DNA of 63,786 nucleotides, the filler included, from Folioceros fuciformis (Eukaryota): assembly GCA_049999805.1 (NCBI GenBank). It is 6 parts of 6 records of this genome, joined end to end, with 100 filler letters (N's around TTAATTAATTAA, not from the genome) between each part and the next. Parts side by side here need not be neighbours in the genome. Positions count along the whole stretch, not along the records: positions 13,548 to 27,506 come from JBNGIO010004608.1; 5 more parts are not named here. One strand, 5' to 3'. Positions 20,805 to 37,200 of the stretch are shown here, in pieces (positions within the stretch are counted from its first letter, which is position 1; each line of letters starts with the position of its first letter). The position numbers were made by a program, and so were the translations under genes. Below the pieces are notes generated by a model. It did no database searches and was not told where the DNA came from. It saw nothing but the letters and a program-made list of their open reading frames with translations.

Positions 20805-21961
<1,157 letters not shown>

Positions 21962-22299: not shown

Positions 22300-23242
<943 letters not shown>

Positions 23243-23974: not shown

Positions 23975-26900
23975 CTACCGACGAACTGCCCAACAACTCA
24001 TGTCACCAAATGTTCTGATCTGGAACAGGCACGGATTATGGAATGGAGTGGCTGTAGGGCCGTAGTACCTAGACAGACGAGACACAACCAGAAAGTTAGT
24101 ACAGAGGGTGGAACAGAATCTGGAAAACGACGAAATCAAGGAGCTTTTAGATACTCACAAGCTGTCCTAGTGTTCGCCAGCTTTAATCCAGTCCCCAGTC
24201 GCAGTAATGCCTGCACAGTGAAGAGTTCGTAATTAGCCAACACATTTCACAGCATCTTTGAAAAGCGTACGCTGCCGATGTCCGTTGCTGTAAACAAAAT
24301 CAGCTGAGAATCAATCACGAACCTTGGCAGCAGCTAATCTTCGGGCCACTCGCTTTTCTTGATGTTTCGAAACACCACAAGGCACGTCATTGATAACTGC
24401 TCGCGCAATCACCATTCCACTCAGACATACGCAGTCCATATCCAACCTCCAGTTGTGTTCGTGACAGATCTTTTCAAGTTGCCTCACCGGCTGCAAGATG
24501 ACAGTGTCGGGAGTCACCAGAGGCTCAAGGAATGGTCTGAGCACCTGCGCACAATTTTCACAACTCTTCAGGAACACATTGGATAAGGCTGCTTAACTCA
24601 ACTGCAGTGAATGACACAAGACCATTAATGATACACGGGTAGAATATAAAAGAGAGCAGCATAACACAATGCATAGAGGCTCAACGGAACCAGGATGGCA
24701 CCTACTTTCCACACGGTCTCCGCATTGAACCCAGAATCAAGGAATATTGCAGCTGCCATTGTCTGAAAGATATCTCCTACTACCTGCTCAGTATCGTTGG
24801 AGAAGGTGGTCGCACAGCAGACAATACTCGGTTTGATGAGTTTAAAGCCTGCGCTTTGCTCTACGCGAAATACGGAAAGTCGGAAGGTCAGGAATTGAAG
24901 ACAGGGACAAAACTCACCTTCGGTGAAGTCTGGCTTGAGAGACCAAAAGAACTCCATCTGCTAGCTCCGTTCTCCTGGCAAAAGTCTATTACGTATGTCA
25001 GTATCTCATCCTCAAGAACCGGAGATACTTGCTGAAGGTTTACGTGCAAGCCGTTGCGAACCACTACAGAAGCATAGTTTTCACTGTTGACGGTAGCCTG
25101 CTTCAGATCGTTGAGCTTGCCGGGCTCTAAGTCGGGGTGAGCAGACACAAAATGCCGAGTAACAAGGAAGTGAAGCACAGCATCCCCTAAAAATTCCAGT
25201 CTTTGGAACACGAAGACACTTCCAGGTTCCGCAGGCACGTAGTGCAGAGCAGCAGCCAAAAAGTGAAGATTCTGGAACCGATATCCCAGTTTGCTTTGCA
25301 GCTTCTGAACATCTGTCAACTGTGAAAGTAGAATACCACTCATAGTCCCTGAGGAACAGACGTCTAAACCCAGAGTTCTGGCTGGGGGAAAAGAAATGGG
25401 TATCTCCAACCAGGCCATGACGTGCAGAGCAGCCTTGAATCCTCCGTGGAGGAGATATGCTCCTACTAAAGCCTCAACAATATCCGCTAAAGTCTTGTAG
25501 GACAGCCGCTGAGTTGCTGTCAAACATGACTGGACGTCTGAGGCAGATGCATGAAGAGGACCTGGCGGAATCCAACCCCGTGGAGTGAATATATCTGCAA
25601 AAACATATTCTTGCAATTTCCGTCCCAAAGCAAAATGATAAAGTGTCTTGTTCTTGACCAGCTCATACATCTCATCTCCAAGAGTTTCATAATCCATGGC
25701 CATGTCACGTGTGTAGAGATAAGTTGCCCCTGCTATCTTCAAGACACTGTCTCCAAGGAGCTCAAGAGACTCGTAGGATTTACCTCCCTGACACGACTCT
25801 GGTGTCAGCGCCCGTAAGACCTGCAACACCACAACGAGTCGGCAATCAAATCACTGCAAGAGAAATTTCGTCACCCGGAAATTTGCGGCAGGATCAGAGC
25901 CTGCGAACCATCATGCGTCCCCTCTCAAGCATGAGCTAACAGAGCCAGTCCCTTCTTCACCTGAAGCAAAAGGCATCCGATCTGAAGTCAAACGTTTGAG
26001 GAAGATGATAAAATGACGAAGGAGTTCCCCAGTGAAGCAAAAGCATGAGAACCTTGAAGGTAGACATGGATATCCCAATGCGGTCCCGGAGCTCCGCAGC
26101 CAGCAGTGCTTTCTCCAAGCTGTACAGCACAGTTGGCAGGCGCAATGCACCCCTCAGTAGCTTCGCCTTCAATCCTACGTGCAAAACGCAAATCTCTGGA
26201 GGCAACTGCACAATCTCCATCTGCTTGGAGAAATTTCCACCTGCGCACACGAGTGGCAGCACAGCGTCTAAAGTTGTCTCCGTTGAGGCGGTACGCGACG
26301 TGTCCTAAAATGCGCGACCAACTAGGAAACTTTCTTACCAAGTAATAACTCTGCGCATCGACCTTGGCTACGTAAATAGCTGGCCGCGCATGAAAGCTTG
26401 CGGCAGCTGAGCAGAGGCTGCTCCTTACGCCTCAACTTGAAGTGATACCTGAAGTGCGGAACAGGCATTCAAACCCGCAAAAAAGCTCAAGGCACAAAAT
26501 CCAAGAGATGGGAGATGCTATCCGACATCACCTGCAATGCCAGAGGAGAGCAAGCAGAGGCGCACGGACCTGTGACGGTAATGCTCAGCAACGGTTACAC
26601 AAGCTGAGCAAGTTTTCTGTGGCACACTACTCCCCCCGTTGGAGTCGGAAATGTCGACAACGTAAAACACCATCCCGTTGAGCGCACAGGTGACCATGGC
26701 ATCATACAGAAGGTCCTTGTCCGCATCTCCACTCCACATTCGCACTTGTCCCTCCACTGGCAAATCGGAGTCCCCTTGCATACAATCAATCTCGCAGGAG
26801 TGGTGCACGCCGCCGGCGGCGTGCTGCGCTTTCCTGCTGCAATCCAGACCCGAGGAGAGGGCGCAATCCACTGTAGACCAGTCAATTCCGCCCTCCGCCT

Positions 26901-27506
26901 CGGTACTCAAGGGCAGTACGTAATAGCCTTTGGGCCCGTCCTCAGGGTCGCCCGCCGCGGACTGCCGACCAAGGATGACATTGAAGAGCCACAGATTGAA
27001 ATGCTTGGTCCGCTTCTCCTGCTCCCGAGGAAGCAGGAGGCAGGAGGCAAGGAGGTGGAGATCAGATCCAAATTTCCACACCGGAGGAAGCAGGATCTCA
27101 AACAGGCATGGGAAAACACACACAAAATTATCATTCAAGCAAGCGCAAACAAACACACAAATTTGAGCGAGCGGGAGCCGGCAATTCCCACCTGGTCATC
27201 GGACAGAGCCAAAACTGCACGGAATTGCACACGGGCCTCCGCGGAAGCGCCGAGCGGCAGGTGGAGCTGCAGCACCATGTTGCTCGCCTCCTGGTCCAAG
27301 GCCACGGGCACGAGCAGGAGAAAATCCGCAGCCTGGCGCTGCTGCAGCGGATCCCCGCCCGCCTCCAGGAGCGTGAACTTGACAGAATAGGCATGGAATT
27401 GGCGTTGGTGGGCGGGAGCGCCAGCGTCAGAGCGCCGGGCGAGCGCAGCGGCGGGCGGGAGCAGCGCAGCGGGGAAGCGGCGGGCGTAGGTAGCGGTGGC
27501 AGAATC
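23975..27506 (-). CDS. Dicer-like RNase III protein (platform-PAZ-RNase IIIa-RNase IIIb-dsRBD). Exons: from at least 27506 to 27192, 27018-26570, 26448-26339, 26240-26053, 25820-24918, 24783-24706, 24544-24323, 24210-24159; last exon uncertain (stop at 24003 or 23975). The 5' end runs into a linker.
   Basis: Platform-like FHAYSVKF...DFLLLVPVALDQE and IDWSTV; PAZ-like YHFKLRRKEQPLL; connector LPPEIC...LPTVLYSLE. RNase IIIa YESLELLGDSVLK / KTLADIVEALVGAY; RNase IIIb FQRLEFLGDAVL / PKVVGDIFQTMAAAIFLDSG; dsRBD PVRQLEKIC...KRVARRLAA. Confidence 0.92.
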
Positions 27507-28329
27507 NNNNNNNNNNNNNNNNNNNNNNNNNNNNNNNNNNNNNNNNNNNNTTAATTAATTAANNNNNNNNNNNNNNNNNNNNNNNNNNNNNNNNNNNNNN
27601 NNNNNNGCTGATGGGTCCCCTAAATCTGCGGCGCTGACTGCGGCAACAGATATCGCCGCCGGTTCGCACGCGCAACGGAATCCGTTTCAGTTTTTGCGCC
27701 GAGCCGATTCTCGGGCCCCCTTCATTGTTCCTCGTTTCGTACGTAGGAAACGCCCACCGGTGGCTCGGGTGGAGTCGGGGGTGTGGGCCTTGTTGGGGAT
27801 TTGAGGCAGCGGTGGTGGTGGGGCTTTGTTTGCTGCTGTGACCTTGTCTGGAGCCGGAGATTGGCAATGGGCCACACATGTACAGTAAGTATGTAGTTCC
27901 CGCCGGGTTACATCGTCTGTGGGCCTGCGTGAGGACAAGCGAACCACATGGCTGTGCGTTCCCCGGGACATGGGCTTCATCTCCCGCTTATCCGGCCGGA
28001 ACATTGCCATGTGCTTAGCGCTCCAATAAGCAAACGGTCTTTCATGCACATGCACTCCGGGGCCACGGCTCGCTCTCCGATCCCGGATCACGCTTCGTCG
28101 CTCCTTCCTCTCTACTCGATATTCGCACATCATTCATCACCACCACAAGCCCCACAACCCCACAACTTACAACTCCATATGCCATCGCACATTCCCTATA
28201 ACCGCCACCACAAACCTGCCCTAACGTGTTCTGATCCACATCCCACAACTTACGTCACTACTTTCACCGCATGCCACAACCCACAACAACCCGGGCTGGG
28301 TTGCACAACATCTTAACTCGAGTCTTTCT

Positions 28330-29790
28330 ACACTTGGAGGTCTTGAGCCTGTACTGTACAAGGAAGATGAAACCCATGAAAACCCATATTGCATAATAAC
28401 TCACTTCTCACAATTTGCAACTCACACGTTTAGACTAGTATACCTCTCATCTCCAAACGAAGCATAAACCCACACCGCACAGCTGATAACTTACAAAATC
28501 GCACAACCCACATCACTCAACTTATAACCTACAATCCACAAAAACCCACATTGCACAACTTACTTTTTTCATTCATACCCATAAAATTGTATAACGTCAT
28601 GAACCCATAATTGCCACCCACAATATCCTATAGCGTTATGAACTTACATCTAAGCCACGATATACCACAGTCTACAAATTCATGAGCCAAAGCGCACAAA
28701 TCTCAACATCTTCATCATGACCAGAAAAGAGCTTAAACCCACCAAATACCCACATTACATAACTTACTTAAACCCACCAAATACCCACATTACATAACTT
28801 AAAACTCACAAATATACTTTCACATGTTGTTGTCGCTCCAAAAGCCACAAAAAGCCCAAATTGCACAACTTACAACTCACACACAATCAAGTACTTTTAC
28901 ATGTCTTCTTCACTTGAAAGCCACATTGCATAACTTACAACTCACGCATGTACTTTTGCACATCTTCATCGCGCAAAAGACACNNNNNNNNNNNNNNNNN
29001 NNNNNNNNNNNNNNNNNNNNNNNNNNNNNNNNNNNNNNNNNNNNNNNNNNNNNNNNNNNNNNNNNNNNNNNNNNNNNNNNNNNTCTTTGTTGCCTCAATG
29101 CCACAAATTTCAAACATCCTCATTGCCTCAAAGCTACAAGTTTCACACATCTTTGTGGCCCATTTACACACTTTCATGGCCCTTGAAGCCACAAGTTTCA
29201 CACAGCTTTGTTGCCTCAAAGCCACAAATTTTACACATCCTCATGGCCCCTTTACACACTTTCATGGCCCAAAAGCTACATCATACAACACACAATTCAC
29301 ACCTCTTTATTTATACATGTCCATCACTTGAGGCCAAATGCACATGTTCGGCCTAAAAGCTACAACCTTAAAGGCACAATAACCTATGTGGCACAAAACA
29401 CAACTTAGACCCCTTTATGCATACATGTTAATCACTAGAAGCTAAATGCACATCTTCACAACTCGAAAGCTATAACTCAAAATTCACAATAATCCACATC
29501 TTCTGCCTTTACACATACATGTCCATCATTCAAAGCCTAAATCCATAGAAAGTAAGTGTGATGATAAATTAATTGGCTCGAGAGCCACAATCCAAAATCC
29601 ACCATAACCCACATTGCACAACTCAATCCAAAATCCACCATAACCCACATTACACAACTCAATTCAAAAGCGACCATAACCCACATTGAGCAACTCATAT
29701 CTCACACCTCTTCACATACATGTTAATTAGTGAAAGCTAAAAATCTCATGCCTCTACATATACATATTAATCATTGAAAGCCAAAACCCA
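28330..29790. repeat. Degenerate A/C-rich tandem repeats (acccacattgcacaactta-like; cctcaaagccacaaatttcaca-like)
   Basis: Numerous imperfect 30-80-nt duplications, for example at 28733-28801, 29084-29280 and 29587-29696. Confidence 0.7.
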
Positions 29791-30149
29791 TAAAATTGAG
29801 TGTGATGGTACATTGATTTCACAAGAAAGTTATCACTTCTTCAATGTTATAGTGTTGAAACACAACAGACATACGTTGAGATGCAAGTCTAGATGATTAT
29901 TTTTATATTTTTTTGATACCATGAAGATTGCATTAAAGTAAGAGAATAGAAAACTCATGTACCTTAGGCCCAGAAGAAAGAACAATCTAAGTGCATATGT
30001 TTATTTCGTGTTATTATAACGATGTGACGATTGTATAAAAAGGAAAAGATTATTTTGTACTTTTATAGGAATGTGAAGATTGTATTCAAAGGAAGAGAAT
30101 CAACAACTCATATACCTTGCATTGAGGAAGAAAAAAAACCACCAAAGGA

Positions 30150-33100
30150 CATAAACAAACAGGCTAAGCCCCCCTTAGCTCCCCCACCTTAGCTCCCATA
30201 TATACAACTTACCAAAGGAAAAGTCTGCACACTCATTTAGGGATGTGAACAAAAGAGTTTGGGGGCAAGAATGAAACACCAGGTAGTGCACAAGGACGAA
30301 AGGGCTAGCTCCCATGGATATGACCCACTAAAGGACATGAACTAAGGGTTAGATCCTATGAAACCAACCCATTAAAGGACACGAACCAAGTGCTAGGCCC
30401 CATGAATGCAACCCGTCAAAGGACAACAACAAAAAGAGCAAATCCTTCACGTAAACAACTTATCGAAGGACCAGAACCAAGAGGCTAGTCCCCACACAAA
30501 GGAGGGTTTGGTGAGAGGGTTCGGTGGGCAAGAACCAAAGGGTAACTGCTGAGCATACCACCAAGTAGAGGACAAGAATCAAGGGGCTAGCCCAATNNNN
30601 NNNNNNTGAGCATACCACCAAGTAGAGGACAAGAATCAAGGGGCTAGCCCAATGAAAACAACCCATCAAAGGACAAGAACCAAGTGCTAGGCCCCATGAA
30701 TACAACCCATAAAAAGACAACAACAAAAGAGCAAAGCCTTCATGCAAACAACTTACCAAATGACCAGAACCAAGGGGCTAGTTCCCACACAAAGGAGGGT
30801 TTGGTGGGCAAGAACGAAAGGACTAGCTCCCATCAATACAGTGCACTGAAGGATAAGAACCAAGGGGTAGTTCCTGCACTAAGGAGGGTTTGGTTGGGCA
30901 AGAACAAAAGGATTAGCTCCCATCAATATAATGCACTAAAGGACAAGGACCAAAGAGTAGTTCCTGCACTAAGGAGGGTTTGATGGGCAAGAACAAAAGA
31001 ACTAGCTCCTATTAACACAACATACTAAAGGACAAAACCAAGGGGCTAGGCCCTATAAAAACAATCTACTTAAGGACAAGAACCAAGGGTTAGGCCCCAT
31101 GAATACAACCCATTTAAAGGACAACAACAAAACGAGCAAAGCCTTCGCGCAAACAGCTTACCAAAGGAGAAGAACCAAGGGGCTCGTCCCCACACTAGGG
31201 AGGGTTTGGAGTGCAAGGACGAAAGAGCTAGCTCACCATGGAAACAACCCACTGAAGGATAAGAATCAAGGGGCTAGGCCATATGAAATCAATCCACTTA
31301 AGGTCAAGAACCAAGGGCTAGGCCCCATGAATACAACCCATCAGAAGACAACAACAAAAGGGCAAAGCTTTCACGCAAACAACTTACCAAAAGGCAAGAA
31401 CCAAGGAGTTACTGCCACACAAACAGGGGTTTGGTGGACAACAACCAAAGGGTAGTGCGCAAGGATGAAAGGGATAGCTCCTCATGGACACAGCCCACCA
31501 AAGGACAAGAACCAAGCGAAGCACAAGGCTCTATGAAAACCCCACCAATGTACAAGGACTATGGGCTAGGCCCCATGAATATAGATCATCCAAAAACAAC
31601 AAGAAAAGACCAAAGCCTTCACGCAAACAACTAACCAAAGAAGGAGAACCAAGGGGCTTGTCCCCACACCAAGGAGGGTTTGGAGTGCAAGAATGGAAAG
31701 GCTAGCTCACCATGGATACAACCCACTGAAGGACAAGAACCGAGGGTTGTACTAGGCCCTATGAAATCAACCCACCAAAGGACAAGAACCAAGGGCTAGC
31801 CCCCAATCCATCAAAAAACAAGAACAAAGGGCAAAGCTCCCACACAAACAACTTACCCAAGGGCGAGACAAGTGGCTAGTCCCCACATCAAGAAGTAACT
31901 CACCAACATGAAAGAACGAAAGGGTTTGGTGGGTAAGAATGAAAGGGCACTACGCAAGGACAAAAGGGCTAGCTCTCATACATATGGCCCACAAAAGGGC
32001 TAGCTCTCATACATATGGCCCACTAAACGATAAGACTCTAGGGGCTAGGCCTTATGAAAACAACCCAGCCAAAGACAAGATTCAAGGGGGAGGGGGTAGG
32101 CTCTATAAATGCAACCCATCAAAGGACAGAAACAAAAGGCAAAGCCCCCCACGTAAACAAAGGACACAAACAAAAGGCAAAGCCCCCCACGCAAACAAAG
32201 GACAGAAACAACAGGCAAAGCCCCCCACGCAAACAACTTACCAAATGACGAGAACCAAGGGGCTACGTTCCACATCAAGGGTTAACTCACCAACACATAA
32301 GAATGAAAGGGTTTGGTGATCAAGAACGAAAGGGCAATGCGCTAGCTCCCATACATATGGCCCACTAAAGGACAATAACCCAGAGGCTAGGCCCTATGAA
32401 AACAACCTATCAAAAGATAAGAACCAAGGGGGAAGGCCCTATGAATACAACCCATCAAAGGATGAAAACAAAAGGGCAAAGATTCCCACGCAAACAACTT
32501 ACCAAAGGACAAGAACCAAGGGGCCAAGTCTCACATCAACGGTAACTCACCAACGCATATGAATGAAGGGTTTGGTGGGCAAGAACAAAAGGGTAGTACG
32601 TAAAGACAAAAGGGTTAGCTCCCATACATATGGCCCACTAAAGGACAAGAACCCAAGGACTAGGCCCTATGAAAACAACCCATCAAAAGACCAAGGGGGA
32701 AGGCCCTATGAATGCAACCCATCAAAGAACAAAAACAAAAAGCGAAGCCCCCATGTAAACAAAATACCAAAGATGTAAACAAAGGGGCTAGGTCCTCACA
32801 AACAATGTACCAAAGGATGTAAACAAAAGGGCTAGGTCTTCATAAAAAATTTACCAAAGGATGTAAACCAAGGGGCTAGGCCCCACAAACAATTTACCAA
32901 AGGATGTAAACCAAGGCGCTAGGTGTCCACAAACAACTTATCAAAGGACGTAAACCAAGGGGCTAGATCCCCACATCAAGGGATAACTCACCGTTAAGTA
33001 AGAATGAATGAAAGGGTTTAGTGGGCAAGAATGAAAGGGTTTAGTAGGCAAGAATGAAAGGGCAATGCGCAACGACAAAAGGGCTAGCTCTTATGCATAT

Positions 33101-34100
33101 GGCCCACTGAATGATAAGATTCCACGGGCTAGGCCCTATGAATACAACTCATCAAAGGATAAGAACCAAGGGGCTAGGCCGTATGAATGCAACCCATTAA
33201 AGGAAAGCCCCCCACGCATACACCGTACCAAAGCGCAAGAAAGAAAGGGCATTGTATAAGGACAGAAGGGCTAGTTCCCATGCATATGGCCCACTAAAGG
33301 ACAAGAACCCGAGGGTAGGCCCTATGAAAACAGCCCATCAAAGGATAAGAACCAAGGGGCTAGTCCCCACACTGAGGACAGTTTGGTGGGCAAGGATGAA
33401 AGAGCAATGCTTAAGGACTGAAAGGGCTAGCTCACTTGGATACAAGCCACTGAAGGACAAGATACAACTGGGCCAGGCCTACGAAAGCAACCCACCAAAG
33501 GATAAGAACCAAGGGCTAGGCCCACCAAAGGATAAGAACCAAGGGCTAGGCCTTATTATTACAACTCATCGAAGGACAAAAGCCAAGAAGAACTAGGCCC
33601 CATGAATACAACCCACCAAAGGACAAGAATGCAAGGGTTTGGTGGGCAAGAAGGAAAGGACTAGCCCCTACGGATACAACCCATTAAAGGATAAGAACCA
33701 AGAGGCTAGACCAATACAATTCACCAAAGGACAACAGCTAAGAGGCCTAGCCCCCATGGATGCGTGTAATATGAAACTACGTAGCACTGACACCTGACAC
33801 AAGGAGCAACAACCTACAAAAGGATAACAACAAAGAGGCTAGCCCATGCAACCCATCAAAGGACAAGAACTAAAAAAAGCCTAGCATACATGGATGTGTG
33901 TAATACAAAACTACTTGCTACCTGACTACTTGCTACCCGACACCTGACATTGAGGAGGAACATTGTAGCAAAGGGCAATACTTGCCACCTAACACTTGAC
34001 CTCGAGGGCTAGAACGAAAGGGTTTGGTAGGCTAGAAACGAAAGGGCTAGCCCCACGGATGCAACCCACCAAAGGACAATAACCAATGGGCTAGCATGCA
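30150..34100. repeat. ~4-kb diverged satellite built from ~44-45-bp units (aaggacaagaaccaaggggctaggccctatgaatacaacccatca) with higher-order variants
   Basis: Dozens of copies of caagaaccaaggggctag and agggtttggtgggcaagaa; a homogeneous 43-44-bp sub-array at ~32770-32970. Confidence 0.9.
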
Positions 34101-34156
34101 TGAATGCTTGTAATGTCGTGATCATTCAAAGTTGAGGAAAGACTTACCTACAACTA

Positions 34157-34283
34157 TGTACAACTAATACGGATGATGCTTGTGTCACATGCTTACTCCA
34201 CAACTACAACTTATACGGAATATGCTTGTGTCACATGCTCACCCTTCAACTACAACTAATACGGATGATGCTCGTGTCACATG
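34157..34283. repeat. Three copies of a ~45-bp unit (tacaactaatacggatgatgcttgtgtcacatg...)
   Basis: Direct repeats visible in the sequence. Confidence 0.8.
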
Positions 34284-37200
34284 GTCACTGCCATCGCATA
34301 AGTTGCAGTGCCCAGCTAACACCAATAACTCCAATGCCTTGTCTTCCACGCTTACTTACTGTGGTCCGTGAATGGGAGCAGCTAGTGGATATTGATGTGT
34401 GGCCCGGAAATGGCAGCCTGACTAGTTGATGTCAATGAGTCCTTGTCTTTCACGTCTTAAACTCTTTTGGAAAGCCTACCATGAAACCAATTCCCTTGGC
34501 CAACACTCCTTGCCGGACGATGGAAGGCCACGGCCTTGAAACCAACCCCTTGGCCAGTACTCTTGGGAGGACGATGGAAACCCCTGTGGAACCAAGACCA
34601 AGATGACTCAAGAAGGAAGGAGAGCCACTTCGTTTAAATTTTACATTTATATTTAAAGTATATTTAACAGAGGCCTTGAAGAGTTACAGTTCCGTCCGGC
34701 CCGTTCCGTTTGGGAGGTAAGTTACGTTTGTATGGACATACAGTAGATAGGCGTGGTGATTTGCCGGCCACGCACACTGAGGGGTGAGAGAGAGTGAGAC
34801 AGTGACAGAGTGACTGATGAGGAGCGTAATGTGGGTGTACGGACGGCGTGTCAAGTTGCGGAGAGCCACGTGAGGGGAGAAGAGATGCCGGGGTTGCTGC
34901 CAATCATGGAGCGGGAGGGTGTCGTATTGGCCGCGCTCCGCCTGCATTGCTCGTTCGCGGCGCTGTTCCCAAGGCCGGCCCTGCCCGGCCCGGCCCGGCA
35001 TTGGCATTGGCCATTGGCTCATGATGATGACCATGGCGTTGGCCGTGGCCTTGGCCTTGGCGTTGGCCCTGGCCATGGCATGGTTCCTCGCCTCGCTGCG
35101 CGAGAGTGTTTCGGAGGTGGATTCACACGGCAGCTCGCTAAACGACACGGCACGTGGCATCACTTGTCGCTATCCATGGCTCAGAGGCAGCGGCACAGCC
35201 ACTCTCATCTCCTCGGAACGGGAAAAGGCCAAGGCCGTGGCCTTTCCGCCATCACCGTCGTCTTCGTCTTCGTGGGCGCTAGGGTTTGGGTTTTGTTTGT
35301 GGGCGGTATGGGGTGATGTGGTGTGGGAGGCAGAGTAACGGGGTGGTGGGCGATAGCGCCGTCCCAGATTCGTCCCAGGTTCCAGCCCTCCAGCTTCACA
35401 TCATGTACATGGCCCAGCCAATGCGGCGTTGCCAGGCAACCCACCTCTGTGTTTGGACGTTTCCGGGTACGAGGCCGGCAGGTGGTGATCCTCTCGCCGA
35501 GGGCCAGAGGGCGCGTTGCAGCGCAGACAGTGAAGTGGATGGGATTGGTGTTGAAGAGAGTTGCAACAGGAGCTCAGTGTGGAGGGGAAGGAAGGAGGGA
35601 GGGAGCAGTGCAGTGCAGTGGAGTGCGGCAGGTCGGCATCTGTAATAGCATGTGCTCATGTATGCACCGCACTCTGCACAGTGTGTACTAGTGTACAAGG
35701 GGGGGAGGAGGGCCTACCAGCTGTGTGTACCGGCTACCAGCCTTACATTGCGGCAACACGAGCATTGCATGACAGTACCAGGACCTGAGGACCTGAGGAC
35801 CTGAGGACCAGGCCCAGGTCCAGGTCCAGCAGCAGCCTCGCTTCCTTTGCTTTGCCTCGCCTCCTTTGCTTTGCCTCGCCTCGTCCCGCCCCGGCTGCTG
35901 CCACTGATGCTGCGTCTTGGCGATTGTGGGCGCCCACAATCCCGCTTGCAGGAACCTGTGAGAATCACGGTGCAGTTCAACGAGTCCGACCTCAGGCGCC
36001 CACCGCCAGGCCTTCGAAGCTAAGCTATGTCCCCATCCCATTTGACATTCCGCTTACACCCAAATCCCGTCATCCGAATAGTATCGCCACAGTCAATGTG
36101 CGATGAAGGCGCCCGCACATTTGTTTTGTATATTTTTCGTGAAGCCAAGCGCCGAAATTCTCCTCTTACAATTTGATGCTGTTACAGCTCATGCCCTCTT
36201 GGCGACTTGTACCAACCATCTCCTTTTTTTCAAAATTTCACTGCTCGGAGGAGGAGCAGCAGCTCGAGGGACGAAGCTGGCAATTCAGACAAGAGCCGCC
36301 CAAGACAAAATCCAGATTGGGTCTTGCTGGAAACTGCCAAACCGCACCCCACTTGCACACTCCCTTGTTGCCTAGTTCCCTTTTTATCCATTCCATTCCC
36401 TTCATCAACACCTCTCATGTATTTCCTCCCCGAGTCTCCTACAATTCAGCATCCTATCAAATCCCACGACACCAGCATATTCGTGCCCCCGTTGCAACGT
36501 CACAGCTCTCCCAATCACATGATCCCTCCCACATACTCCCAATCCCTTCCCTTCCCTGCCTTGTTACATTGCCCGTTTCAATACAACCCATGAAAGCACA
36601 CCACTCCAAAACAACAGCCCACAAAAGCAACAAAAGCTCATAAGCAAAGGCAAAAGGCCTTAGGGTTTAGGGACTAAACATCGCAGCCCACATTGTGACA
36701 TCGGTGAAATGGTAATTGATCTGCCTGCTTTCTTCTCCCACAAAAGGAATCATACACATATGTGTGCGAATTTCGTACGCTGCAACTTCCAAGGCAACAT
36801 AAAAATAGAGCGCACAGCGGAGCAAGGTACCTACACGAATCCAAAGGGCAAGTGGGACCCCAAAACGGGCCGCTTTGGGATATTTGAGGCAACAGGAGCA
36901 GCAGCAGCAGCAGGCCACACAGGCCCAGCCCGAAACGGGCTTTCGCCGCCCCAGCGGTATCGCCACAGCGACTGCCAGTCTGGGTGCCGCCTGCCCCGTC
37001 TATAATTACCTAAACTGAAATCAATAAATATAGCATCATTTGACCGCGGAGGCAGTCCAAATCGAGAATCAACAAAAATAAAAATTTATTTTCACGCACA
37101 TCGAAAGGCCATGCGCGGTCGCGGCAGGGGCAGGAGCAGGGCGGGAAAATATCTGTTAACTCTCTCACGTGCACTGGGGCCCGCAGACATCCAGGCCGCC

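Follow-up and report, generated by a model that had tools for sequence, protein, structure and literature searches.

A helicase-less Dicer-like gene of the mDCL family in Folioceros fuciformis carries glutamine at a catalytic position of RNase IIIb

Results

Gene structure and domain architecture

We examined a 63.8-kb stretch of Folioceros fuciformis DNA (63,786 nucleotides, filler included; called the window here, and all positions count along it). A gene occupies the minus strand between about 27.5 and 24.0 kb, and all exons given below lie on that strand. The first visible coding exon (27192–27506), located by tblastn with orthologues and by its open frame, encodes an N-terminal, platform-like region. 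A transcript contig from the RNA-type run X3 spans 27191–27480 of this exon and continues 167 nt further; two masked runs of N (27507–27550 and 27563–27606) remove the 5' end of the exon, probably together with the start codon. The platform and the start of a PAZ-homologous region follow in exon 2 (26570–27018), which is bounded by contig joints (27017/27191 and 26446/26568) common to X3 and the runs X6 and X10, has GT..AG borders, and aligns by tblastn to residues 143–299 of P0001, a protein of Marchantia paleacea. The PAZ-homologous region continues in exon 3 (26339–26448; joints in the same three runs, borders and tblastn) and ends, together with a connector, in exon 4 (26053–26240; joints 26238/26337 and 25818/26051, and borders), which is 60% identical to P0001 residues 329–401 (tblastn).

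Exon 5 (24918–25820; 301 codons) encodes the entire RNase IIIa domain as well as the N-terminal half of RNase IIIb, contains two Pfam Ribonuclease_3 stretches (E 5.3e-29) and shows 0 differences from the X3 contig. The second catalytic motif of RNase IIIb (VVGDIFQT...) lies in the 26 codons of exon 6 (24706–24783), whose translation (24783–24706) is VVGDIFQTMAAAIFLDSGFNAETVWK; the corresponding X3 piece (24704–24781) again has 0 differences, and the position of the intron that precedes this exon is common to the fragments P0121 and P0122. A C-terminal dsRBD-like region is encoded by exon 7 (24323–24544), defined by contig joints and aligned through P0001 to the first dsRBD region of DCL1. Exon 8 (24159–24210; joint 24209/24322 in X3, X6 and X10, and borders) is followed by the last coding exon (23998–24068), where the coding sequence ends with a stop codon at 24000–23998 and gives way to the 3' UTR; the free end of the X3 contig lies at 24037–24066. 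The reading frame is open over 795 codons with eight contig-supported introns. The preliminary description had placed a Dicer-like protein at 24706–25820 with intact splice sites; both limits are genuine exon ends, and the splice sites are backed by contigs beyond consensus alone. Two plus-strand ORFs beneath this interval (24643–25035 and 25542–25817) have no Pfam match, and we did not see an opposite-strand gene there.

The encoded protein comprises a predicted platform-PAZ region, the RNase IIIa and IIIb domains and a tail resembling a dsRBD, and is without a helicase or DUF283. The tandem RNase III domains are present as the Pfam pair in 24918–25820 with the second IIIb motif in 24706–24783. 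Tblastn with four full-length DCLs, including DCL1-like and DCL3-like proteins, gave no helicase match in the 63.8-kb window; these queries match the window only from their residue ~1335 onward, and the X3 transcript reaches its upstream limit about 167 nt past 27480. The PAZ and dsRBD assignments rest on collinear homology to orthologues, single window exons giving matches to 0 Pfam families. The predicted PAZ domain, divided over three exons, has no Pfam match on any one of them; the spliced protein is collinear with P0001, P0004 and P0005, whose PAZ scores of 35.3, 29.8 and 32.7 bits, respectively, exceed the Pfam cut-off of 28.8. The dsRBD likewise lacks a Pfam match on the window exon alone, and in P0001 the dsrm match is weak (E 0.011) and below the Pfam cut-off.

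Catalytic residues

RNase IIIa retains its acidic tetrad (E, D, D, E). Its first motif, YESLELLGD (25775–25749), supplies E at 25763–25761 and D at 25751–25749, and its second motif supplies D at 25484–25482 and E at 25475–25473. In RNase IIIb the first motif, RLEFLGD, keeps E (25196–25194) and D (25184–25182), and the second keeps D (24774–24772), followed by CAG (24763–24765, minus strand), which places Gln at the position of the metal-bridging Glu in an alignment through P0001 to the PDB chains of DCL1, DCL3 and DCL4. The IIIb tetrad thus reads E, D, D, Q and is incomplete. The counterparts of the Gln are E. coli E117, Arabidopsis DCL3 E1329 and human DICER1 E1813. In chain 7vg2_A the aligned Glu residues stand at chain positions 1187 and 1370, which a 41-residue offset converts to E1146 and E1329; the DCL4 chain 9kby_A has N and Q at the corresponding sites, in both domains. 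The motifs of the preliminary description, which had reported all four acidic residues kept in RNase IIIa and a Glu-to-Gln change encoded by CAG at 24765–24763 in RNase IIIb, are where it put them on the minus strand: translation bears out the complete IIIa set, and translation, alignment and the RNA-type contig all agree on the Gln.

Expression and selection

Transcripts of the gene are spliced, and purifying selection acts on it. A 2822-nt X3 contig joins 24322–24542, 24704–24781 and 24916–25822 with 0 other letters. X3 is an RNA-type run whose sample and study are independent of the likely source of the assembly, and X6 and X10 are runs from two relatives that give spliced contigs with joints in common with X3; an RNA origin is assigned to all three from the spliced joints, which are absent from the DNA run X1. 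Between the window gene and two related species, 28 synonymous and 12 non-synonymous changes are found among the 40 listed of 211 differences. With 267 synonymous and 858 non-synonymous sites, these 40 give an approximate omega of ~0.13, and coding indels in the relatives add up to multiples of three. Of the checks proposed with the preliminary description, the cDNA check comes out in favor of CAG at this codon, through an independent spliced contig with 0 differences across the exon, and the dN/dS check (below 1) in favor of a gene under constraint.

These data bear on a further explanation of the Gln, namely a mistake in assembly or sequencing, or a gene decaying into a pseudogene; we give it next to no credence. 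Nothing was found in its favor, the one weak point being that the N runs hide the 5' end of the gene. Against it stand the independent contig, the 795-codon frame across eight contig-supported introns, the predominance of synonymous changes among those listed, the frame-preserving indels, and the identical residue at the same position in eight other species. As far as the contigs allow, the error or pseudogene reading is refuted.

Membership in the mDCL family

The locus almost certainly holds a live mDCL orthologue that carries a genuine Gln. The spliced protein, 795 aa of which are visible, forms a single collinear alignment with Marchantia paleacea P0001, residues 31–773 against 71–817 at 44% identity (E 0), and likewise with Physcomitrium P0005 at 39% identity, the database model of P0005 ending early so that its C-terminal tail is outside the comparison. 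[quoted passage not shown]

In a 42-row tree, with rows hand-picked from 304 proteins, the window protein falls in a 15-row clade (SH-aLRT 100) to the exclusion of DCL1–4. The clade comprises proteins from Physcomitrium, Ceratodon, Sphagnum, four named liverworts, two lycophytes, Ceratopteris and Ginkgo in addition to the window protein, which forms with P0121 a lineage of its own, placed by the tree outside the mosses, the liverworts and the vascular plants. A 57-row tree agrees (11-row clade, SH-aLRT 100); both trees are quick searches without bootstraps. Of 8000 candidates scored in a search with P0001, 11 proteins had E at or below 1e-20, and the search brought four more members into the clade. 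A profile search with alignment A1 returned 21 proteins and no further clade member, and we therefore regard the census as surely incomplete and the clade as containing at least 15 members.

The preliminary description had called for alignment with DCLs and moss mDCL, and the protein groups with Physcomitrium mDCL and the Marchantia-type minimal DCL (SH-aLRT 100). That result does not support the idea, implied there, of a hitherto unknown pathway component: the gene is an orthologue of a published family, represented by Physcomitrium mDCL and Marchantia Mp6g09830. The helicase-less mDCL family is known already, and the window gene adds one more orthologue to it. Physcomitrium mDCL goes back to a 2015 description cited in PMC5144951, PMC10721683 and PMC13738684, and Mp6g09830 of Marchantia polymorpha has gone under two names, MpDCL1b (PMC11799827) and MpMDCL (PMC13738684). 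[quoted passage not shown]

An incomplete RNase IIIb tetrad across the family

The Gln, at first seen as a peculiarity of one gene, proves in the tree and alignment to be a trait of the whole mDCL family. Among the 229 aligned rows that cover both RNase III domains, 214 have Glu at the RNase IIIb site; this alignment was used in place of a regular-expression motif count, which left 65 of 267 proteins unscored. The 15 rows without Glu consist of 11 from the window gene and its family (the window gene, three named orthologues, one Logan protein and six isoforms of one Ceratopteris gene) and four from one Selaginella cluster, so that outside the clade every row has Glu save that cluster.

Within the clade, the site corresponding to Glu117 is Glu in none of the 12 covered members; nine have Gln, one has Lys and two have Pro. 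Orthologues do share the Gln, as the preliminary description had asked: it is found in nine of 12, the window gene included. The other IIIb ligands have also been lost in places, with E at the Glu41 site in 8/15, the Asp45 site kept in 14/15 and the Asp114 site in 10/12, and no covered member has a complete IIIb tetrad. The IIIa tetrad (E, D, D, E) is whole in 15/15. On the 42-row tree the fewest changes required at the four IIIa sites are 0, 0, 1 and 0, the lone change lying outside the clade, and at the four IIIb sites 5, 1, 2 and 4, of which 11 fall within the clade or at its base. Taken as whole domains, IIIb and IIIa are equally conserved in the clade (mean pairwise identity 0.45 vs 0.46). 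Reconstructed from the aligned proteins in this way, the loss of the IIIb Glu is placed at the base of the family, has been kept since, and dates to early land plants.

A separate case is Selaginella P0140, a short DCL1-like protein unrelated to the clade, in which both centers are hit (D to N in IIIa, E to Q in IIIb); therefore wholly dead short Dicers may exist.

Our literature search, with Coruh et al. 2015 and supplements lying outside it, found no note of the RNase III catalytic residues in the mDCL family and no enzyme assay of an mDCL. The word 'catalytic' has 0 occurrences in PMC13738684 and appears in PMC11799827 only in GO terms and one reference title.

Discussion

A candidate one-strand-cutting Dicer

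A genuine, family-wide Gln suggests that mDCL enzymes cut only one strand of dsRNA. On balance we favor this reading, under which the window protein would be a natural half-active Dicer, or dsRNA nickase. The preliminary description had offered it for a single gene; the comparative data agree best with this idea, IIIa being whole in every clade member and IIIb never complete, but not with its restriction to this gene, the pattern belonging to the entire family. The displaced Glu coordinates both metals and is described as functionally essential (PMC3867540). The E1329Q form of Arabidopsis DCL3 no longer makes the domain-B cut, and its domain A goes on cleaving the opposite strand, giving 23 nt (PMC8846587); in human DICER1, E1813 is a metal ligand required for cleavage of the 5p strand, with E1813Q still reading a G-C pair (PMC11487123).

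The predicted dimer would combine an intact IIIa with a degenerate IIIb. The two domains would associate with each other, as they do in every Dicer, and hold a dsRNA whose end occupies PAZ. To judge from the residues, hydrolysis would fall to the IIIa center alone, and therefore one strand would be cut per binding event. The cut strand would be the one with its 3' end at PAZ, and the reaction would leave a duplex with one nick, or yield one short strand, with no duplex siRNA. The amide of the retained Gln probably preserves a contact, structural or to the minor groove, without coordinating metal; alternatively, retention of the Gln in nine of 12 members could mean that the site is still catalytic in some way, with another metal geometry. 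By analogy with DCL3, in which the 23-nt strand comes from domain A, one-strand cutting may lie behind the tie of moss mDCL to 23-nt heterochromatic siRNAs.

An alternative that we consider unlikely is that the protein cuts no RNA and is instead a dsRNA binder, built on PAZ and the RNase III fold, affecting canonical DCL3 or DCL1 as a competitor, a recruiter or a modulator. It would then be comparable to plant proteins whose two RNase III domains are both inactive, among them the chloroplast splicing factor RNC1. The IIIb center is clearly free of catalytic constraint, the P0140 losses touch both centers, and the Marchantia knock-out alters few sRNA loci, its authors discussing indirect effects on DCL1a-dependent miRNAs (PMC11799827), all of which would suit a binder. 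If cutting were dispensable, however, the IIIa tetrad should decay like that of IIIb, and it has undergone 0 changes in 15 lineages from mosses to Ginkgo, vs 11 in IIIb on the same tree. Catalytic loss is thus confined to one of the two RNase III domains, here and in all 15 clade members, and the pure dsRNA-binding modulator that the preliminary description had entertained is a poor fit with the untouched IIIa.

Still less probable, in our estimate, is dicing of both strands, either with the Gln tolerated or with two molecules (or mDCL together with DCL3) each contributing a IIIa-type center, as in bacterial RNase III homodimers. The prevalence of Gln at the site, which is not free drift, would agree with it, as would the reported dependence of moss mDCL function on DCL3 (PMC5144951) and the ability of short Pol IV-type duplexes to be entered from either end (PMC8846587). 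Yet the same substitution kills the domain-B cut in Arabidopsis DCL3 (PMC8846587), and the Glu is called essential and bridges both metals (PMC3867540). The Glu41-type ligand is also lost in seven of 15 members and Asp residues in some, so that IIIb cannot be an active center in those lineages, and an intermolecular IIIa-IIIa center finds no support in any of our analyses.

A wider version of the one-strand reading is speculative but worth entertaining: the whole mDCL family may have been a strand-specific nickase since early land plants, with IIIb switched off once (Glu to Gln) and retained as an RNA clamp, and with IIIa alone cutting the strand whose 3' end lies at PAZ. In non-flowering plants the 23-nt strand would then come from the action of this enzyme on heterochromatic siRNA precursors. 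In mosses, 23-nt and 24-nt siRNAs are equally numerous (PMC5009732), and the nickase reading, if true, would explain both this parity and the link of mDCL to the 23-nt class. Two secondary accounts of that link conflict: 23-nt siRNAs depend on mDCL in moss according to PMC5144951, whereas the moss mdcl mutant has more 23-nt and fewer 24-nt siRNAs according to PMC10721683. The Mp6g09830 knock-out of Marchantia, with normal development, only 217 differential sRNA loci and increased salt tolerance (PMC11799827), gives no direct support for a 23-nt role.

Since 2015 there has been no clear role for mDCL, and its possible pseudogene status is openly raised by the authors of PMC11799827. This helicase-less Dicer has been kept in bryophytes, lycophytes and ferns; in moss it has been connected with 23-nt siRNAs, and in Marchantia with salt tolerance. 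For the window alone our result is modest, one further mDCL orthologue; a disabled IIIb beside an untouched IIIa in every member gives the family a concrete and inexpensive hypothesis, one-strand cutting.

Comparison with known systems

Physcomitrium mDCL (P0005) belongs to the same clade, likewise has no helicase, and combines a IIIb Gln (PKAIGDLMQT) with an intact IIIa; it differs in being only 39% identical to the window protein, which forms with P0121 a separate lineage. For the minimal DCL of Marchantia, the nearest sequence, P0001 (M. paleacea), has the same IIIb Gln at 44% identity, and a knock-out phenotype is known for Mp6g09830, whereas the window gene is known from sequence. [quoted passage not shown] In trypanosomes, KREN1–3 and the degenerate KREPB4/5 provide a proposed pairing of active and non-functional RNase III domains in which one strand is cut and the other spared; unlike the domains discussed here, these are separate polypeptides without PAZ, in an unrelated pathway, and the pairing is the hypothesis of a review (PMC3867540).

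Two further parallels are engineered or pathological. Arabidopsis DCL3 E1329Q has Glu to Gln at the homologous IIIb position and cuts only the domain-A strand, to a 23-nt product (PMC8846587), but it was engineered from a full-length enzyme with a helicase, whereas the window protein is natural and has none. The human DICER1 RNase IIIb hotspot mutation E1813Q affects the same residue with the same substitution, and 5p cleavage is lost while the IIIa cut is kept and the Gln reads a base pair (PMC11487123); it is a somatic disease mutation in an animal Dicer and no evolved state. If the one-strand reading is true, the mDCL family would be a rare evolved Dicer with one active and one inactive center, mirroring these human hotspot mutants.

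Gene structure and motifs

Translation of 24400–26200, together with stop-to-stop frames, placed the gene on the minus strand and recovered every motif of the preliminary description, which had proposed a Dicer-like protein with a Glu-to-Gln substitution in the second of its two RNase III domains (IIIa and IIIb). IIIa carries a first motif, YESLELLGD (25775–25749), and a second, LADIVEA (Asp codon 25484–25482, Glu codon 25475–25473). The first IIIb motif is RLEFLGD (Glu 25196–25194, Asp 25184–25182), and the second part of IIIb lies in the exon after an intron, VVGDIFQTMAAAIFLDSGFNAETVWK (24783–24706), where a Gln codon, CAG, occupies 24765–24763; all five features are read from the minus strand. 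Pfam Ribonuclease_3 matches two stretches within the large exon (E 5.3e-29), and the two longest plus-strand frames beneath the finding gave no Pfam match. Joined by script, the spliced exons stay open for 795 codons, between a masked gap at 27507 and the stop codon at 24000–23998.

The window holds several 100-N runs and five pairs of 44-N runs with 12 bases between partners (13448–13491/13504–13547, 27507–27550/27563–27606, 37275–37318/37331–37374, 59244–59287/59300–59343 and 62487–62530/62543–62586). The pair at 27.5 kb covers the 5′ end of the gene and probably its start codon as well. Directly upstream lie ~6 kb of satellite-like tandem repeats (28700–34300; periods of 44, 88–90 and 35–38 nt) with a strong A-over-T skew (+0.44 to +0.46); long K/Q/P-rich frames inside this tract are most likely repeat artefacts. 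Neighbouring genes encode a dephospho-CoA kinase (22300–23242, plus strand; two exons match Pfam CoaE at E 2e-18 and 2e-13) and a protein with the cytidine/deoxycytidylate-deaminase fold (21079–21506, minus strand; Pfam, E 1e-12).

The protein belongs to the MINIMAL DICER-LIKE family

The 301-residue exon was searched against longer proteins (721 at E ≤ 0.001 among 3973 candidates, the best 120 listed) and against 1.84 billion representatives (4657 matches, 48 at E ≤ 1e-30). In both searches the top matches were not canonical DCLs but short proteins (600–870 residues): Marchantia paleacea P0001 (45%), Riccia fluitans, Ceratodon, Diphasiastrum, Physcomitrium P0005, the Ginkgo model P0123 and three Logan proteins, P0121 (62%), P0122 and P0124. 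P0001 as query added Calypogeia, Riccia sorocarpa, Sphagnum and a 609-residue Selaginella protein. The spliced protein aligns with P0001 in a single piece (31–773 against 71–817, 44%). Full-length DCL1-like and DCL3-like queries matched the window only by their residues from ~1335 onward, and the helicase and DUF283 are therefore absent.

Trees of the RNase III core (57 and 42 chosen rows; quick IQ-TREE, SH-aLRT only) both placed the window protein within a clade supported at 100. In the 42-row tree this clade has 15 rows: mosses, the window protein with P0121, liverworts, and vascular plants (two lycophytes, Ginkgo, and P0124 with Ceratopteris), the lineage of the window protein being separate from the other three, a placement that would be compatible with a hornwort. 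The clade is the published MINIMAL DICER-LIKE (mDCL) family, which Coruh et al. (2015) reportedly described from Physcomitrium, and the gene is a further member of this known family, not a new family.

The Marchantia orthologue, Mp6g09830, goes by MpDCL1b in PMC11799827 and by MpMDCL in PMC13738684; the latter uses MpDCL1b for Mp7g16380, a clash that can mislead comparisons. Homologues are given for Anthoceros, Sphagnum, Ceratodon, Physcomitrium, Diphasiastrum, Azolla, Salvinia and Ceratopteris (PMC11799827). The same source reports the type as absent from seed plants, yet the Ginkgo biloba model (Gb_37867, P0123; a gymnosperm) lies inside the clade beside fern members with a support of 92.

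The gene is transcribed, spliced and constrained

Contigs of four sequencing runs were compared over 24100–27480: X1 (DNA, the likely source), X3 (same organism label, different sample and study), and X6 and X10 (related organisms). A 2822-nt X3 contig joins 24322–24542, 24704–24781 and 24916–25822 with 0 other letters, and a second joins 26051–26238, 26337–26446, 26568–27017 and 27191–27480. X6 and X10 contigs show 90–95% likeness and have most joints in common with X3. The DNA run X1 has no joints over 24100–27480, so the joined form is RNA-derived. With each joint moved to GT..AG, there are eight introns.

Among 40 listed differences to X6 and X10 (of 211), 30 fall at third codon positions, and 28 are synonymous and 12 non-synonymous. 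With 267 synonymous and 858 non-synonymous sites these yield an omega of ~0.13, which is approximate because only this part of the difference table was used. Coding indels in the relatives sum to multiples of three. The preliminary description had named an assembly error or an incipient pseudogene as explanations that would undo its claim, and had proposed looking for the CAG in cDNA and for a dN/dS below 1. The CAG exon is reproduced letter for letter in a spliced contig from a separate sample, and the ratio is well below 1. To the extent that contig data allow, the X3 contigs, the open frame, the mostly synonymous differences and the in-frame indels exclude assembly or sequencing error and pseudogene.

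A further X3 contig reads through the acceptor at 25820 as far as 25958, which is joined to 26051, and thus skips 92 nt instead of 232. It looks like an alternative splice form, which would carry an in-frame stop because the stop-to-stop frame starts at 25850. The 2822-nt contig continues ~1500 nt past the stop codon, below 24000, representing a long 3′ UTR or else a merger with the convergent transcript of the plus-strand CoaE gene. In X10, a separate contig covers part of the Gln exon (24707–24767) at a depth of ~167, against ~22 for the orthologue, with 1-nt and 3-nt gaps and with flanks that differ; as the threshold was 80%, this contig may stem from the corresponding exon in a different Dicer gene, or be unrelated.

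Catalytic residues across the family

In an alignment of 229 rows covering both RNase III domains, the IIIb site is Glu in 214, all of which also carry E, D and D at the other IIIb positions and a complete IIIa tetrad. The 15 rows without the IIIb Glu are the window protein, P0001, P0002, P0004, P0124, six isoforms of one Ceratopteris gene and four rows of one Selaginella cluster. The 15 clade members were scored by direct reading and small alignments. All 15 have an intact IIIa tetrad. The IIIb Glu117-type site, covered in 12, is Gln in nine, Lys in one (Riccia sorocarpa), Pro in two (P0124, Ceratopteris) and Glu in none; the rows of P0121, P0122 and Ginkgo break off or go astray precisely at the conserved exon border preceding the second IIIb motif. 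The Glu41-type site is Glu in eight of 15 (otherwise Val, Val, Gly, Ser, Asp, Ala and Ala), the Asp45-type site Asp in 14 of 15 (Asn in Sphagnum), and the Asp114-type site Asp in 10 of the 12 covered.

Minimum changes on the 42-row tree were 0, 0, 1 and 0 at the four IIIa sites and 5, 1, 2 and 4 at the four IIIb sites, 11 of the latter in the clade or at its base. The lone IIIa change is in a Selaginella 608-residue protein outside the clade. Were both centres equally free, 11 changes against 0 would have a probability of ~0.0005 (simple sign test, hand arithmetic). The IIIb domain is conserved to the same degree as IIIa (mean pairwise identity 0.45 and 0.46, 28 pairs). As judged from these alignments, the substitution is a family trait of mDCL, and the picture they suggest is that the IIIb centre was inactivated once, early in land plants, and the remaining ligands drifted afterwards, with the IIIb domain still needed and the partner IIIa centre never touched. 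A wholly non-cutting RNA binder is possible, although it leaves the 0 IIIa changes unexplained.

The 608-residue protein (P0140, Selaginella moellendorffii) is a second, unrelated short Dicer that groups with DCL1 (support 96–99), not mDCL; it gained Gln independently at the same IIIb site and has Asn at the IIIa Asp114-type site.

Proposed mechanism and comparison with known enzymes

This Glu, equivalent to Aquifex E110 and E. coli E117, binds both Mg2+ ions and is functionally essential, and heterodimers with a single dead site can nick dsRNA, as proposed for trypanosome KREN/KREPB pairs (Nicholson review, PMC3867540). Human DICER E1813 is an essential metal ligand in 5p-strand cleavage, and E1813Q retains the wild-type G-C pair response (PMC11487123). 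Arabidopsis DCL3 was made catalytically inactive in domain A by E1146Q and in domain B by E1329Q; the 24-nt cut in the measured strand normally comes from domain B, and with that domain mutated the bottom strand alone is cut, to 23 nt (PMC8846587). This E1329Q result and the additional ligand loss in seven of 15 clade members contradict full dicing of both strands by mDCL, whether the Gln were tolerated or two molecules paired.

For an expressed protein of this short architecture, with the IIIa centre intact and the IIIb centre disabled family-wide, we propose that IIIa and IIIb would pair like those of other Dicers, that PAZ would hold the duplex end, and that IIIa alone would hydrolyse, so that one strand would be cut per binding event; the Gln amide may retain an RNA or structural contact. 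If DCL3 serves as a guide, the domain-A-cut strand could be the source of 23-nt products, and such a one-strand model would fit the dependence of moss 23-nt siRNAs on mDCL cited in PMC5144951 and the similar abundance of 23-nt and 24-nt siRNAs in Physcomitrella (PMC5009732). Against this link, PMC10721683 gives the moss mutant in the opposite direction (23-nt up, 24-nt down), and the Marchantia Mp6g09830 knock-out has few sRNA changes and a salt phenotype (PMC11799827).

The main-text passages searched, from papers other than Coruh et al. (2015), held no mention of the mDCL RNase IIIb state. In alignments with structures, both domains of DCL4 chain 9kby_A have Asn and Gln at these sites, which we take as engineered inactivating changes. 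In P0001 aligned with DCL3 chain 7vg2_A, chain residues 1370 and 1187 face the family Gln and the IIIa Glu, respectively; the chain is offset by 41 residues (1621 against 1580), making these E1329 and E1146. On this basis DCL3 E1329Q is the exact counterpart of the mDCL Gln: the laboratory mutant has the same Glu-to-Gln change, at the homologous IIIb position, as the mDCL family.
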